Positions 2,338-11,600 of a stretch of 64,000 bases of DNA are shown in pieces. Made by a program: the position numbers and the translations under genes. Position 1 is the first letter of the stretch. The number at the start of each line of letters is the position of its first letter. The stretch is from Sphagnum compactum (Eukaryota): assembly GCA_965153455.1 (NCBI GenBank), contig OZ234494.1, positions 6,014,001-6,078,000 on the forward strand. Direction: 5' to 3'. The notes under the pieces were generated by a model that saw only the letters and a list, made by a program, of their open reading frames with translations, was not told the DNA's origin and searched no databases.

Positions 2338-4003
2338 TATGAAGGTGCCATAACATTCACACATCTATCTGTGCCAGGTGGTTTGCCACTCCAGCCAGTA
2401 ACAATCAAAACTCAACTAGAAGATGTAGTAGGTGAATCAGTTGAGGGACAGGAATCATCTGAGACAGCTCAGGCTGCCATTCAATTTTGTTTACTGGTTC
2501 AGGGACATGGAGGTGGATCATTGCAACCAAATTACTCAAGTCTCCCTCAAGAAACTAGCTTTTAATCTCCCCAGGATGAAGGTTCTCATCATCAAAATGC
2601 TGAGTCCGCAGAGTTACTCCAAGGGCAACCTCCAAAGATTTTACACTGTACAAAACAATGACCATAAAAACCTTGTCCTCTTACAAATGCAAGGTCCTTG
2701 GAGTCAGGCTCCTTCAAGTTAAGCACTATCGGTTAGGATGTAATGCAAATGAACATCTGACATGGTGGAAAGAGTGGCTGCACACAACTAGGTGTCAGAA
2801 GGGTGTTACATGCAATGGTTAATCCTCTTAAAACTTTTGGATTTGGAAGTTTTCCTCCAATTGGATCATCATCTTGCACTTTTGGCTCTATAATGCCTTT
2901 TTGCTGCTCTTAAGGAGCACAGACAAAGTCATACGTTGCTATGAACTAGATTTGCACTTGCAAAAGATTTTGACATTTTCCACCTTGATGTGTCCTTAGC
3001 ATAACCTAAAGTAAGAGTCATCTGCTCAGGTAACAGAACTAATTTGCAGAAGATCCAGCAGCTTCAACTCAAAAGCTCAATTTGAAACCTAGATTCTTCA
3101 GTTGAACAACTGCTGAGTTACACCATAGCAAGTTGAGTACCATGGCATTAAGGATATTTTTTGTTCACACCAATAATATAAGATAGTAAAAAAGAGGGTA
3201 GGGAAACAACTTTTACAACTGCAGTGAGCAAGGCTCATGGAAAAACCCAATGGTTGTTGGCATGGGTGTAACCAGGAGATGCTTGTATGTCCAGTTGTAA
3301 ACATTTAGGTCAAAATTTGTCATAGGCTATTTGATTGAAGGCAATCTTATTTTATAATATAACGTATAACAACACACCAAAACTTCACTTCCCATCTTTT
3401 GTACGTGTAAAACAAACATCACTTGGTGTTAGCTAAATCATCACATTCATAACAAATATTTGTGTTTTCCAAGTCACAATCATAAACCCTAGGACTTATG
3501 AATAGGGCTAGCAAACCCACCAAAAACCCCATACATTATTTCAATTGTGCACCCAAAAGACAATTTTGTTGAGAAGAGATGATCTACTGTAAAAACACAC
3601 GAATATCTGTCACTGCTCTTGAACAAGTCTAGTGACCCCTGCAAAAGTCTTAACCCTAATAACACAAAACACTCCTATTCTTCTTTTGGTACAATACACC
3701 AATACTTAGTAATCATCACCCAAATCACAATTCTCTTCAATATTATTCATTCCTTGCCATGATCATAATACTAGCAAGGATTAGAAGCAGATTTCATTAC
3801 ATCATCCCAAAATCTACTGGTACATATTTGTATACAGCAAAAAAACCATCAAAGACAGGATTTTGGTGGGGTGCATCCATCCCCACCCTTGCTCAGTGAC
3901 GACCATTTGCAAAGCAAATAATGTTCTCAAAGCAAAACAAGATGATCCTACCTTGAGAGAGGGCTGTTGCAAGCCAGACAGGTAGTTTTGGACTTTTGTG
4001 GAT

Positions 4004-4724
4004 TCATGAGGTGAGGTTGAGCTGCGATCGTTTGGCTGCATACCGCCATGCATCTGCCTCCAATTTTTGCTTCTCTCTCCTCAGGGATGCTAATAAATCC
4101 TCCATCAATGCTGTGAAGCAAAATCAAGTTCCTCAGTCAATAATTATATGTGCATCCATCCCTTTGGGATATTGAAACTGGTTTGTGGCTGACATGAAGA
4201 ATGATGTCTTGGATGCTTGAGAAGGAAACAGAAAGAAAACGAAACACACAATGTGTTGGATGCTGGAGAAGAAAAACCACAGGAAGAAACAATATCTGTT
4301 CGATATATATTTCTCAAGAAGAAGAAGAACGACAACGACAACAAAAAAAATTCCTCATAAGAAACATAATGTGTTGGATGCTCGGGAAGGAAGAAACACA
4401 AATTTGTCTTGGATGCTTGAGAAGAAGAAAAAACAAACAAGGAACAAGGAAGGTCTTAGATGCTCAAGAAGGAACACAAGAAATGTGTGGGAACAAATGC
4501 GTGCGTGCGTGCGAGCTCGCTCGCGCACCTTGCTCAGTCTCGGCCTTGCGATCCAGAGTGAAGGTTAGATCTTCGGCCAAGCGATCCAGGAGCGCACAGT
4601 CATCCTGAGGTGCCATAGCTGCTGCTGCTGCTGCAGCAGCAGCAGCAGCAGCAGACGTTGAAGCAGCAGATGAGGATGTCCCCGCGCGCATAGGCGACGG
4701 CAGCATCGAAGAAGCCCCCTGCAT
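4004..4724 (-). CDS. SAMBA: SAMBA-like APC/C-associated small protein, 100 aa. Exons 4724-4529 and 4110-4004
   Basis: A phase-1 GT-AG intron (CAAG|GTGCGC ... TTCACAG|CA) joins MQGASSMLPSPMRAGTSSSAASTS(A)nMAPQDDCALLDRLAEDLTFTLDRKAETEQ to ALMEDLLASLRREKQKLEADAWRYAAKRSQLNLTS*. The size, low-complexity N-terminus and C-terminal R-K..DL..L....LE.D.W....RS..L.S pattern match angiosperm SAMBA as I recall it. Confidence 0.8.
4200..4490. repeat. Imperfect minisatellite in the SAMBA intron
   Basis: About 5 copies of a unit resembling tgt(c)ttggatgct(t/c)gagaag(g)aagaaacaca. Confidence 0.7.
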
Positions 4725-5638
4725 GCCGCTCCTTCCTTGTCGTCCCTTCTTCTTCTTCTTCTTCTTCCAAATCCCACTACTGTTGTGTCGTGGTGACTCT
4801 CTCCAGGGCGGCGAACTTCGCCCTGGACCGGCAAATGGTTCGAGCGGTGGGGCCGGGGCGGGCGCGCGGGCGGGCGGGCGGATGGAAGAAGTTTCTTGTG
4901 CGGGTGACGATGTGATGCAATTGGGGTGGATGGAAAGCTCTCACGTTGGTTTCTCGTGTCGTGCAGATGGATCGGCGGAGATGAAAGAAAGCAGGGTGAC
5001 GACGCACGCAATCCATGGCTGTCGACGGAGTTCGTTGGCAACGGACGAGAATGGGCCAGGAAACGTAGCCGGAAGTCGAGTCACACTGCCAGGGAAGGAA
5101 GGAAGGAAGGAAGGAAACGAAACGAAACGAAACGAAACGAAACGAAAGGGAAGGGAAGCGAAGAAAGAAGAGGAGTTTCGGAAGATGCGCCTGCCGCACA
5201 GAGGGGGAGAGAGAGCGAGAGAGGTAGGTCCGCCGACGACGAGGAGGCGCGACACGAGGAGGTGGCTCGCTCGCTCGTTCGTTCGCTTTTCTGGTGCGGA
5301 GCAGACTAAAGAATAGGTGGCAATCTGATTGCCGTTTGCTTGTTCGCTCGCTGTGCGCAACAACACACGGTGCGAGAGGAGGGCGGATTTTTTTGTGGTA
5401 GTCAGCAGATTGTAGTAGAGCAAGTGCCGCGGCCTTTTGTGTTTTGTATTTCTTGCTGCTAGCTACGTATATTGCTCAGCTGCGCTGCACTCCCGCCTGC
5501 CCGCATTTTGTTGCGTAGGTAGGTGGGTAGGGTTTGGCAAGTTTCTTTCTCTGAAGCAGCAGCAATAATCTTGGGTCTGTCTGTCGAGCGTTAGCACTGG
5601 AGATTTGTGCACCAGTCAACCAGCCAGCCAGCGAGGAA
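4725..5638. promoter_or_regulatory. Shared divergent promoter / 5' UTR region between SAMBA-like and RING-H2 genes
   Basis: The two ATGs are ~915 bp apart, head-to-head. The region is GC-rich with (GAAAC)n, (GGAA)n and GGGC repeats. TSSs are not determined. Confidence 0.55.
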
Positions 5639-8600
5639 ATGAAGGCTTCCACCGGGAAAGAGGGTAGTGGTGGACCTGTGGAAGTGGAACTGCCGTTGAA
5701 GGGATTTCTGCCTCGACGCGGAGGAGGAGGAGGAGGACCTGCCGCTGCATCGAGGCAGAACAACCGGGGAATGGAGGTGGGAAACAAGTATGACGCTGCT
5801 GGTGGTGCTGGTCATCATCATCATCATGCGATGGAGGAGGAGAGAGTTCCAGCAGCAGCAGCGGACAAGGGAAAGCTTTCTGTAAGTACAAACCCCACTC
5901 GTCTCTCTTTGTCGGGGCGTCAGATCGAGCAAAGTTCCCGTCGCCTTTACCATGGTAAAGCTGGCGTCGACCTCGATTCCAACAACGGTGTGGCCGCTGC
6001 GCAAACAAGCTCTATTGTGATGATGGACGCTGAAGAAGGAAGAAGAAGAAGCAGGAAGAAAGCTTGGTTGCACAGCACACATGGTAAGAACCCTTTGATG
6101 CTTTTTTGCATGCACAGTTGTAAGTCTCTCCATCTATGTATGTCTGGATCTCAGAGGATATGGCAACCCTGATTAGGAAGAATGCCAAGGAAATTGTGGT
6201 CTCTCAGATTCAATTCTTGGAGGTCCTGGTGATTCGGGAGCTTTAAATTAGAACTGAAGAAGAAGAGGTGCTCTTCTTCTTCTTCAGGACTTGTGCTACT
6301 TTCTGATTCTTTGCTCAATGATGATGTCGTCCGATTGTTGCATCTCACCTTTCTATGCTGCTTTTGTGCAAACCAGATGCAGATTTGGAGTTTGGATTAG
6401 CAAGTGGCTCAAGCAATGTGCCGGCAGCTGTGGTAACCGAACAGGAAGGTGAAGAAGGTGAAAGGCCTGTGACCATGGATCAGGGAGAGATTCGGCCTCC
6501 TGGGAACTCTTCAGAAGCAGCTGGAGCAGAGATTGTCCAAAAGGTTGGGATGGGTCTTCGGTTGTATACAGGGAAAGAGAGAGCACAGTCACATGACAGC
6601 AGTGATAGCGGTGATGATTCAGGAAGGCAGAGAACTAGGTCTTGGATTCCTGGTTCAGACAAACAAAAGTTTGCCCATCCAGCTTCATCAATAGACAGAG
6701 AGAACATATATGGAAACTCTTATGTCAGCAGGCTTGGCAAGGAGTCGAGTGTTGCTGGTAGCAGCTCTGCAGTCGAGTATCAGTTACCAGAAGAGAATGG
6801 AACAGAGATTGAGAAGTGTGAAACACCTCGCACTCGACTGTTACTGCCGTCACTTAATAATAGCAGGATATCTGGACAGAGTGGTGTCTTGCTTGCAGAG
6901 CAGCAGCATATCAGACATGATGCAGTAGCTTCTTCAGGAGATGTCTCTGGTTTTCCAGTTGATGATAAGAAACTCCACAGTTTGAGAGAAAAGAAAAAGA
7001 GGAAACAAGTTGAAATGCACGTTGCAGTGGGTGACCCTCAAGGGCCCCTCATTCACCAGCCTCAAGCTGTAGCAGCTGGCTCAGAGGAAGAGATTTTGCA
7101 GCCAGCGGTTGGTTTGACAAGTTTGACATTGAACAATGCTTGGAGTCGTCCATTGGAGCATGCTACCAGTGTTGATAAGACTGGAGACATGGGCCGAAGG
7201 AAGCGGCTTAAAGAGCATGCTGGAGATCTTTCCCTTTCTAATGCAGCAAGTGCTATGCAGGAGGTGGTGGATTTGTCTTCACCATCTCCTGACACTCATG
7301 GAATACAAAGGTATGAGTACTTACATGGATTATATCAGAAGCAATTGAGTTGCTCACCAGCTCCTTTGTATGCCGCCTCAGGCAAACAGTATTTCCATTC
7401 CTTTTGTGTCTTCCCTGAACATGCATATGTATGACTGACACTGTTGTTCAACCTGCTCATTAATTCTGTTTTGTGGTCTGGTTTTCTCTTCGGGGTGGGG
7501 TTTCCTCTTTTTCATGGTTGCTGACACTGTCTGGTTTTTGCATCAGATCTGAAATATCCCAGTTCCTTATTACATGCTTGTATCCAAATTCTTTTCAGGT
7601 TGCCTTAAATTTTAAGTATTGAGAAATTCTCATGAAGATGATATTTATGGATTCTGAAAACCAAGAGTAGAAGTGGGTTTTGTGGGTTGAATGTTGAATC
7701 TTGTTGCCACTCCAGTAGAAAGAGAATGGATAAGTATTGTTTATTCTTTCTTTATAACCTTGAAGGTAAGTCAAGTAGTGAGAAGTTGCCCAGAGTTCAT
7801 AAACCTACTCCTATGTTATGGAGAAAAGGTCTGAAGTCTTCAGGTCCTTTAATGCTGCTTACAAGGTTAAAGCAAAATGTGACCCTTGTCTTCTTTTGTG
7901 TTGCTTGGAAGTTCCATAAAATCCCCATGAAGCTGAAATGCATAAATGGGGTCAGTTCCTCTTCTCCCAGAAGTTTTGAAGTGATTAAGCTCCTTCTATA
8001 AAGCTATCCTGCTGGTGGTCAATCACCTTTGGGTTGCAGGAAGGTTTTCCCTCACATAACATAAGTTGGGTTATCTAAAACTCCCTGGGGGGCAGTTGAA
8101 AGTTCTCGGATCTCTCAAGGTCTAATGCTGACAGATCTTCTCCCCTTCTGTTGCAGTCCTTTGATTTCTCAACCTCTCCTCTTTCTTTGTTTGGCTGGCA
8201 CACCACTCTTGTCCTCTATGTTAGTCATTGGATGCTCCAAACTGTGCCCAGGAAGATGGCATTCTGTTATATGCTTGTGATCAGTCCACACTTGATTCAA
8301 TAATATGCTTATAAAGAAGAATGTCTTGTATCTGGCATGTTGGTAGGTTCTGCATTGTCCAAGATCTTCAGATAACTGTGACAATTGCATTCAAGGGAGT
8401 CATTTTTCAGATATTCAGGGCCAATTCTGATCAAGGAAGTGGTTTGTTGGTTACTGGGCACAGTGGACATGCAAGACTTCTGCATAACAAACCAGAGGGG
8501 AGGGTAACATCTCCTGAACATGCTCTTAATGGATATCAAACAGAGGGATCTGAGGAACTACTCATGGGTGGACACAGTACCAGGTCTGCCAGGACTAGTG

Positions 8601-11600
8601 TTCCAAGAAATCCAAGATTATGGTATGGCTCCAGCTCACAGGCTCTGGGTTCATCAGCAATGGCACAGTACAGTAATAGTAATAAACTTGGACACTTTGC
8701 AGGCTTGTTCATTCAAGGCAGTGATGTGCCGAATTCTTCTTCAGGGGTCTTTTCTGGAAGAGAGCTTCATCTGGGCTCAGGAAGGGAGGTATCTCAAGAT
8801 GTGATAGATCTTGCTAGTGATGATGGCAGGAGCCAGCTAGAGATGTCGTCTTCATTTCCACATGACCACAGTGGAGAGTCAGGGCCTTCACAACATTCTG
8901 GAGTCTCTGTTCCAAGGAGATCTAATCAGCGTCACCTCTATGGATATGCCCAACGGGCCAGGAGCAGGGTTAATCCTCAGGAACCAATTGACTTGGAAGA
9001 AGACTATCCACTTCGGAATGACATTAGTCAGAGTATCCCATGGGATGGGAATTCAGTACAAGCTCTTGCAGAGCCGTACACTCTACGGAGCAATCAGAGA
9101 GTAAACACCGGTGCTTCAAGAAATAGTAGCTCATTGGAGCCGGAAGACTCAAATGATCTGCCAGTGCAAGAAGATGGTTCTCAATCAGGTAGGAATTGGT
9201 TTTTGACTACAGCCTCAGGTCTTGGGTTCTCAGAGTTATGGAGAGGTTTGTGTAGGCAGGTGGGATCTGTGAGGGGGGAAGAGAGTGGGGACCTGGAACT
9301 GGCCTGGTCCATGGAGCTGGATGACCCAAACCCAACTATGGTAGATTCTTGTACACCTGAGACCAGGATTGCCTTGGATGATGATGATGCAGATACTGAA
9401 AGATCACGCCAGTTGGCTGAAGATGAAAGGCTAGCTCGAGAGCTGCAGGACTCCTTTGTGTCTGAAGCAGTAGTAGCAGATCAAACACCGGTACGCATTG
9501 CATTTATTCAGGTTGTAGATGGAAAGATAGGACTTGGGGGGTTTAACTGTTGCTTGGCCAGCGTATTCTTGGATGCTTAAATGTTTGTGTTCTGTGTTGA
9601 ATTTATAGTGTAACAGCCCAAGTACTCTAAGTAATGGATGTAGAAGCTCCAAGCATGCTGCTTTTGCTGTGGTTTGACTGGATGAGAGTGATTTTTCTAT
9701 GCTTGAATAGAATAGCTGTTAGATCAGAGACTCAGAAGCAGGATGCATGATGATTGGGATTCTGTGTTGGTGGGGTCATTAGGATGATGAGGTTTTGGCA
9801 AGAATGTTGCAAGAGGAAGAGAATCTGCATGGGCGAAGACTTCCGATCATGTACCCTGGTGCTTCTGAGATGCAGGTTAGTTGGTATTGTTTTATTTTTA
9901 CAGTGTATTTATGGCATGTTTGTTGGTGTGACATGAACATCTGGAGGTTTCCCACTTGCCAGAAATTCCATTTTGAGCATTGTGACCACTCTATCCCATT
10001 GCTTGTTTTTAGGTTGCTAGGTCCATATAAATTATTTGAATGCACTAAAAGTGACTTATGTATATATCCTGTGTAGGAATTCTTGGCAGAAATGGGGAAT
10101 CAAAGGGAAGCACGAAGGGCTTGGCGAACTGGATTGACACAGGCCCAAACCGAACAGTCAGATTTCTCTGCATCAACCTCCAGGGTAGCACGCTTGCCTG
10201 TATATGGCCGCAGTGCTGCACTATCCCGCACAAGAAGTTTGTATCCTGCATTTTCAGCTTCAATAAATGTAGAGCAAACAAGGGCTCAATTAGCCATGGC
10301 CCTGGAAATGGTATACTTATTTCTCCTGTGTTCCGCTCTACCATATGGCTTTTTTGCTGCTTTACTTGGGAACCTTCTTTCCATTTTGTTCTGTTTTAGA
10401 GGTGCCTGGCCCTGAATTTTACAGAACTGTGTATAATAGGCTGGAATCATGAGTGCCTGTGACAAATGTTTCTGTCAATCCAGCTTGTTATAAATGACAT
10501 GTTTCATATAGTGTTTGAACAGTTCTTGTTAATTTGCATAGTGTTATACTGGTGTGAATACAGAGGTATGCAGCATTGGACGCTTTCCAGCAGCAACTCC
10601 CTGTAGGTTTACAGCTCGCACATCTTGACAGAGATTTTAATGAGTATGTCAGCTTATTCTCACCTATTCATGACCCTTGTTGCTCAGTCATGGATCCATC
10701 ATGAATGTCTCATAGTATTTCTGAAAAATTGCATTGGTACTCAGTCTGCATGGTCCTCTTGAAGGTGATATTTTGTGAGACACTTGTAAGGTTATGATTC
10801 ATTCTTGCGGTGTATATTATTGGTATGCTGGAACTGACATAGTGCTTACCTTTGAAGTGTTATTGTGGAGTTTTCTTTGCAATCTCATAGAAAGACTTGG
10901 ACACTTCAGGTGGAAATATTTGCATATAAAGTATTTGGCAAGAGTTGTGCTCAGTTTGAAATATTTGCACTGAATTTTTTTAAGATTGGTACCACAGTGG
11001 GCCTTTTCCAGTCGGGGCAATGACCTTCCATTGTGATTTTGTGTTTCATCATGTGGGCAATTTGACGTTGACACTTTATGGTTGTCTTTACTGTTGCATC
11101 ACAGAAATGATTACGAAATGTTGCTGGCATTAGACACAGACAATGATGCACACCGTGGTGCATCTCAAGAGAGCATAGGGTTATTGCCAGTCACAACAAT
11201 TGCAGTATGCATCTCCCCTATTCCTGTTGTTGTTGCACCCTGGGTTGGATAACTTTCCACTTGGTGTTCTTTGAAGATTTCTTATAATCTGCATTTCCTT
11301 GACATAATTCTAATTGCCAATTGCTGCTTATCAACTATGCTAGGGTTGTAAGTGCTCTTGGTTTAGATGGATTATCTGTACGGATTGTTGCACTAAAGTT
11401 GTGTTTGCATGACTTGACACAGCCCACAGATGTGTGTGATGAGAGCTGTTCCATATGTCTGGAAGTACCAGCAGCTGGAGATGTGGTTCGCCGCCTGCCA
11501 TGCATGCATGCTTTCCATAAGCAGGTTTCTCTGAGATGCTTCTACTTCACCAGATTGGGGGACTCAGTTTTACTGATATTGTACTAAGCAGTTACAAATT

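Follow-up and report, generated by a model that had tools for sequence, protein, structure and literature searches.

A SAMBA gene in the moss Sphagnum compactum and a possible distant relationship to the APC/C subunit APC16

Introduction

Does a small, split gene in a moss genome connect SAMBA, a plant regulator of the APC/C (a ubiquitin ligase of cell division), with APC16, an accessory subunit of the animal complex? The question is raised by a locus in a 64-kb window (the whole stretch of 64,000 nucleotides analyzed here; contig OZ234494.1, positions 6,014,001 to 6,078,000, assembly GCA_965153455.1) of Sphagnum compactum. The original prediction, made from the sequence alone, joined two exons of this locus into a SAMBA-like protein whose C-terminus resembles that of human APC16, and proposed that SAMBA is the plant APC16 orthologue. 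SAMBA is described as a regulator and was still called plant-specific in 2025 (PMC12392944), whereas APC16/ANAPC16 of animals (PDB 4RG6, 4UI9, and 8TAR), a small APC/C accessory protein that binds APC3, is described as a structural subunit. No link between SAMBA and APC16/ANAPC16 was found in the literature searched; subscription papers and supplements lay outside its scope, and an earlier publication is possible.

An expressed two-exon gene

Reading of the minus strand and a computed join of the exons give a two-exon gene at 4724..4004 of the window, with the features listed below; RNA depths are those of a polyA RNA-seq run (X24), calculated with positions 4610-4778 left out as repeat.

4725..4900, minus strand: 5' UTR and promoter-proximal region; X24 depth 2-5 at 4766-4900
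4529..4724, minus strand: coding exon 1, 196 nt; ATG at 4724; residues 1-65 and the first base of codon 66
4617..4652, minus strand: (GCN)12 tract, which specifies 12 consecutive alanines; GCT/GCA arrays at 4618-4654
4530..4592, minus strand: SHR1-type conserved region LLDRLAEDLTFTLDRKAETEQ, residues 45-65, in alignments A2 and A3; the predicted long helix starts here
4111..4528, minus strand: intron, 418 nt, GT..AG, phase 1, GTGCGC...TCACAG, between SHR1 and SHR2
4004..4110, minus strand: coding exon 2, 107 nt including the TGA at 4006..4004; the rest of codon 66 and residues 67-100
4025..4110, minus strand: SHR2-type region ALMEDLLASLRREKQKLEADAWRYAAKRS; invariant Trp codon at 4048..4046; pLDDT 95-98
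3700..4003, minus strand: 3' UTR, at least 300 nt; X24 depth 8-25, first mates all on the plus strand

The joined exons amount to 303 nt (100 codons and a stop), with GC contents for exon 1, intron, and exon 2 of 0.60, 0.40, and 0.49, respectively, and the 100-aa product ends in ...LLASLRREKQKLEADAWRYAAKRSQLNLTS, in agreement with the split gene and product end first proposed. Exon 1 encodes a Ser/Ala-rich N-terminus, which in the homologues begins with MQG..., followed by the SHR1-type stretch. The 4529/4110 junction, for which an RNA-seq check had been suggested, is crossed by 24 raw X24 reads with 20 start points and is also present in one metatranscriptome contig (X13). X24 depth is 23-36 over the exons (27-36 at 4520-4601 for exon 1 and 23-28 for exon 2) and about zero in the intron, and all first mates lie on the plus strand, the orientation that a stranded library would give for RNA from the minus strand. 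That the spliced reading frame is an artefact and 4004..4724 holds no protein-coding gene, a view favored only by the short length and the low-complexity N-terminus, is extremely improbable in the face of the 24 junction reads, the stranded exon coverage, the nearly empty intron, and the conservation of the family from green algae to seed plants. The presence of a real, expressed two-exon gene at 4004..4724 is thus confirmed.

Some variation surrounds this main transcript. One X13 contig contains a minor alternative joint, 4110 to 4437, at a depth of 17.8 versus 62.1 for the main joint; its donor lies 92 nt deeper in the intron, and the resulting product would still end at the in-frame stop of the read-through frame, without the SHR2 of exon 2. 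Loose ends also occur in the 3' UTR, in three X24 reads, immediately ahead of 3952 and adjoining a minus-strand site of the type CAAG|GTAGGA; they may reflect a rare 3' UTR splice. A depth peak at 4315-4355 was rejected as an exon: it has loose ends on both sides and is due to cross-mapping, with the (GAA/CTT)-type stretch there drawing RNA reads from elsewhere. At 4359-4437 and 4200-4300 the intron also contains about two copies of a 35-bp unit and, spotted by eye, further looser copies of the motif ...AGCATCCAA[GC]ACA..., and it holds short microsatellites as well. A (CTT)7 array of the plus strand (4746-4767) sits inside the 5' UTR/promoter-proximal region. Within the coding sequence, the length of the alanine run ranges between about 7 and 12 residues in the near-identical Sphagnum proteins P0001-P0012, and the underlying (GCT/GCA)n tract looks like a polymorphic coding trinucleotide repeat.

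The structure of the gene bears on how it has been recorded in public data. A query with exon 1 retrieved 21 proteins, five of them spliced, 15 reading through the donor into the intron, and one otherwise truncated; the proposed reason why ORF-type calling misses the gene is borne out, since these 15 public gene calls run on into the intron. Among the spliced calls, a 99-aa protein of Sphagnum fallax (P0007, BDL97_02G039700), annotated as a “hypothetical protein,” uses the same junction, as does a 97-aa protein (P0004), and each is identical to our spliced product at 96 aligned positions. Read-through calls from other mosses (P0015, P0017, P0020, and P0021) break at the same intron place, as do P0081 and P0071 (the latter contains the Musa P0046 sequence); on our own reading of these sequences, the intron between SHR1 and SHR2 appears to be conserved. 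One read-through of exon 1 (P0006), a public metagenome gene call, is labeled “glutamate-1-semialdehyde aminotransferase,” a label to which its sequence gives no support.

Elsewhere in the window, a neighbor at 5555-9580 on the plus strand, in divergent orientation, includes open exons as long as 369 and 421 codons, rich in Ser, Gly, and Glu and without a Pfam match; its product is probably a largely disordered protein. An Rfam scan of the 64-kb window and a Pfam scan of 12 of its large ORFs found nothing.

A member of the SAMBA family

Homologues of the product were retrieved from Physcomitrium, Marchantia, Riccia, and Calypogeia, including the moss proteins P0014, P0018, P0019, and P0022 and the liverwort proteins P0023-P0025. 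A profile of nine bryophyte proteins (A2), searched against 1.84 billion representatives, recovered 69 proteins at E<=1e-3, 15 of which reach E<=1e-10. These matches include Salix “PROTEIN SAMBA” (P0047, E 3.6e-9), Magnolia “protein SAMBA” (P0049, E 1.0e-8), and Cryptomeria SAMBA (the P0045 cluster, E 4.5e-10), along with the SAMBAs of Musa/Ensete and Triticum/Hordeum. The same profile finds homologues that do not carry the name in Psilotum, Diphasiastrum, Ginkgo, Ceratopteris, Closterium, Micromonas commoda, and Pterosperma, and two such copies occur in Chara. In the reverse direction, a profile of 21 seed-plant sequences (two of them, P0039 and P0082, unnamed and taken as seed-plant) scores the spliced Sphagnum product at 58.5 bits. 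The SAMBA-like character originally proposed is therefore fully supported by reciprocal profile searches (58.5 bits in one direction, E 1e-8 to 1e-10 in the other), and these matches indicate that the Sphagnum gene, so far labeled “hypothetical” in S. fallax, is a SAMBA orthologue and that the family spans Viridiplantae, to which all of its named members belong. No Pfam model covering the SAMBA family was matched among the 72 family proteins scanned.

With SAMBA (Arabidopsis AT1G32310 and its maize and tomato orthologues) the protein shares a size near 100 aa, an N-terminus of low complexity, and the two SAMBA homology regions, SHR1 (D-R-K-x-E-[TA]) and SHR2 (L..D...L.KE.K.L[DE].D.W.[FY]..PRS...S), which were defined by Eloy et al. 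2012 (as given in PMC12392944 and 10.1101/2021.04.22.440954). Alignments A2 and A3 preserve the order SHR1, low-complexity region, SHR2 within these roughly 100 residues, and the intron apparently occupies the corresponding position in P0071, a read-through call from a monocot. In the 53-sequence alignment A3 (P0007 numbering), W86 is invariant and L74, D84, P91, and R92 are kept in at least 90% of the sequences. The Sphagnum protein differs in having a Lys at P91, a position at which no less than 90% of family members carry the Pro of “PRS,” and in its 12-Ala run; unlike seed-plant SAMBAs, it ends right after ...LTS, without their extra 15-30 residues.

Predicted structure and mode of action

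AF2, run on the 53-sequence alignment, predicts a single helix (residues 41-83 plus 85-89, P0007 numbering, pLDDT 90-98), with low confidence for residues 1-40 (pLDDT about 48) and values below 60 throughout the rest outside the helix. When this single-helix model was compared with the PDB by Foldseek, nothing matched at E<=10, a null result to be expected of a model that consists of one helix. The first approximately 40 residues would thus form a disordered Ser/Ala-rich tail, and residues from about 42 to 90 one long amphipathic helix comprising both SAMBA homology regions.

By analogy with flowering-plant SAMBA, this helix, chiefly SHR2 with its invariant Trp, would dock on the TPR subunit APC3b/CDC27. 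SAMBA is reported to bind APC3b directly, and APC3 binding persists in a maize allele that is devoid of SHR1 and keeps most of SHR2, on which account SHR2 is called pivotal (10.1101/2021.04.22.440954); in tomato, TurboID with SAMBA marks APC3b and APC6, and the protein is counted as part of the complex (PMC12392944). Against docking in the standard SAMBA manner stands the Lys found in Sphagnum at the near-invariant Pro position of the “PRS” tail. Taken jointly, membership in the SAMBA family and docking on APC3 are in our estimate very probable. From its place on the TPR lobe, moss SAMBA might tune the activity of the APC/C towards cyclins, as suggested by the stabilization of CYCA2;3 on SAMBA loss (PMC7943633). 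The samba mutants have larger organs in Arabidopsis and are dwarfed in maize and tomato (10.1101/2021.04.22.440954 and PMC12392944), and with phenotypes so unlike between species the direction of regulation in moss cannot be deduced from them.

A possible relationship to APC16

One reading of the family makes SAMBA, through common descent, the APC16 orthologue of Viridiplantae, with its helix lying along the outer TPR ridges of both APC3 and APC7. To this we give a tentative place, just short of an even chance. The case starts from a common build. Human APC16 has 110 aa, with residues 52-110 ordered (PMC5717348), and a single 40-residue helix that lies on APC3B, APC7A, and APC7B (PMC11473103); SAMBA is predicted to have a helix of about 45 residues, likewise preceded by a disordered N-terminus, so that both would be proteins of about 100-110 aa with one long C-terminal helix, and both bind APC3. 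In both, the helix ends in L-E-x-D-x-W-x-[FY]. The identity noted at the outset between the Sphagnum and human stretches, LEADAWRY and LEADEWRF, holds at 6 of 8 positions, and the human stretch was verified in the search output. The PRS tail and SHR1 of SAMBA are without a shown counterpart in APC16, which speaks against the same reading.

Profile searches of the PDB (177,635 distinct sequences, seven queries) placed human APC16 among the best matches in three of the seven, at E 0.25-7, over 19-20 residues, and below Bicaudal-D. The whole-family profile of 53 sequences gave APC16 constructs at E 0.26 (14.5 bits), 0.34, and 7 (ranks 5, 7, and 12); the algal/short profile of 19 sequences at E 0.25, 0.30, and 0.64 (ranks 4, 5, and 7); and the family profile without P0093 and P0085 (51 sequences) at E 1.3 and 1.7 (ranks 6 and 8). 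That all three profiles return it favors common descent, as does the alignment to the end of the helix, in which the conserved L74, L81, D84, W86, and aromatic 88 face L, L, D, W, and F of APC16, identical or like residues in each case. A null model adds to this: random 58-mers reach 13.4 bits or more in 1 of 200,000 cases at average composition, and in 43 and 11 of 200,000 at charged-helix and family composition, respectively.

The alternative is that SAMBA arose in the green lineage and that its likeness to APC16 reflects chance or convergence of short charged helices that lean on TPRs; it, too, we rate at slightly under one in two. In its favor, APC16 was absent at E<=10 from four of the seven PDB queries, namely, those with the bryophyte-only profile, the seed-plant-only profile, the algal profile without P0093 and P0085, and P0093 alone. 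Bicaudal-D and designed coiled coils outscored APC16 in the same searches, at E 0.01-0.1, and since coiled coils that match by chance do better, the range of E >= 0.25, in which every APC16 match falls, is noise for such profiles; the best match (E 0.25) is accordingly not significant. Against a purely green origin, APC16 recurs as the best-scoring natural protein other than Bicaudal-D in three of the seven queries, the family's most conserved positions in the helix agree with it, and the two proteins share the partner APC3. We also know of no annotated APC16 in plants, so that the slot of this subunit would otherwise stand unfilled there, a point that counts for common descent and against the green-lineage alternative alike.

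The behavior of Bicaudal-D deserves a remark of its own. Its C-terminal coiled coil is the top PDB match for all four of the profiles that include bryophyte or algal members, aligning as ...LRNELKALKEDAATFSSLR against ...LRKEEKLLDADAWKYAAPRS, and it is missing only from the seed-plant-only search. These higher-ranked matches mostly end before the Trp or are without it. Strikingly consistent as the match is, we take it as a chance likeness of charged helices.

Other searches bear on both readings. The Pfam model PF17256 (ANAPC16) matched none of the 72 family proteins (5 + 51 + 16) and neither of the exon peptides at E<=10, in a scan in which HMMER filters remove most matches above about 0.1; this favors an origin in the green lineage over common descent. 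In a language-model atlas, in which scores below 0.9 are leads only, Sphagnum P0007 and Micromonas P0095 share the same four opisthokont clusters, in one of which 17% of the members carry PF17256; it scores 0.85 for P0007 and 0.84 for P0095, with 188 and 183 shared features, and is the first neighbor with any common Pfam family. The recurrence of this cluster for two divergent members speaks for common descent; the scores below 0.9 and the atlas's own consistency check, in which 1 of the 10 best family-bearing neighbors shares ANAPC16 and the family is rated probably wrong, speak against it. A word-based search with the 19 algal/short sequences returned 14 proteins, none of them named APC16.

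Common descent is also weakened by the 19-20-residue span of the similarity and by the degree to which its strongest signal leans on a single marine protein, P0093, which carries EADEW as in human APC16 and on which much of the APC16 score depends. P0093 and P0085 are short marine/metagenome proteins of SAMBA type in which the helix and D.W.[Y] are retained and the typical PRS tail is absent: P0093 stops 7 residues past the Trp, and P0085 has KPRR. A single-protein query for metagenome relatives of P0093 gave 579 pattern matches, none of which was confirmed. As for the Sphagnum protein, it had been put forward as a sequence that bridges the two families, and this part of the proposal is not borne out: no search links SAMBA and APC16 through it, and since APC16 was missed in four of the seven queries, the bryophyte-only one included, the moss sequence itself is no bridge.

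A precedent for an APC16-type subunit whose orthology is undetectable by sequence comes from Saccharomyces cerevisiae, in which Apc9 is the counterpart of APC16 with “no clear sequence similarity” and binds APC3B through a C-terminal three-turn helix in the same way (PMC11473103). Apc9 differs from both SAMBA and APC16 in its 265 aa and three binding segments, and none of the sequence searches run here retrieved it. That subunit counterparts can lose all sequence similarity favors common descent, and with Apc9 accepted on such terms, failure to find a sequence match would leave the orthology of SAMBA undecided. The phyletic record of APC16 is itself narrow in an earlier survey, in which Apc16 was found in two jawed vertebrates only (Eme et al. 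2011, PMC3195147). On the side of a green-lineage origin are the restriction of the named family members to Viridiplantae and the treatment of SAMBA as plant-specific in the literature up to 2025. Of the original proposal, then, SAMBA membership stands on the reciprocal profiles, and orthology with APC16 is suggestive, at close to but below even probability.

Implications

The gene itself is ordinary, a moss version of a plant cell-cycle factor already known. The searches shown here extend the SAMBA family across Viridiplantae down to prasinophyte algae, and with such a reach it predates the land plants.

Should SAMBA and APC16 share a common origin, SAMBA would be a conserved core accessory subunit and not a plant-specific regulator, a view that we hold at a little less than equal likelihood. 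A plant-specific APC/C inhibitor and breeding target, studied for more than 10 years, would then become a conserved structural subunit, and the samba “regulator” phenotypes would be those of an APC/C minus a core accessory subunit. What is known of human APC/C structure could inform the choice of SAMBA mutations, such as those in the Trp and its APC3 pocket. If CDC26, APC13, and APC15 are among the subunits annotated in plants, the plant APC/C would also have counterparts of the small metazoan subunits. SAMBA might thus be the green-lineage APC16, and this small helix subunit of the TPR lobe might be no younger than the ancestor shared by plants and animals, which we regard as nearly, though not quite, an even prospect.
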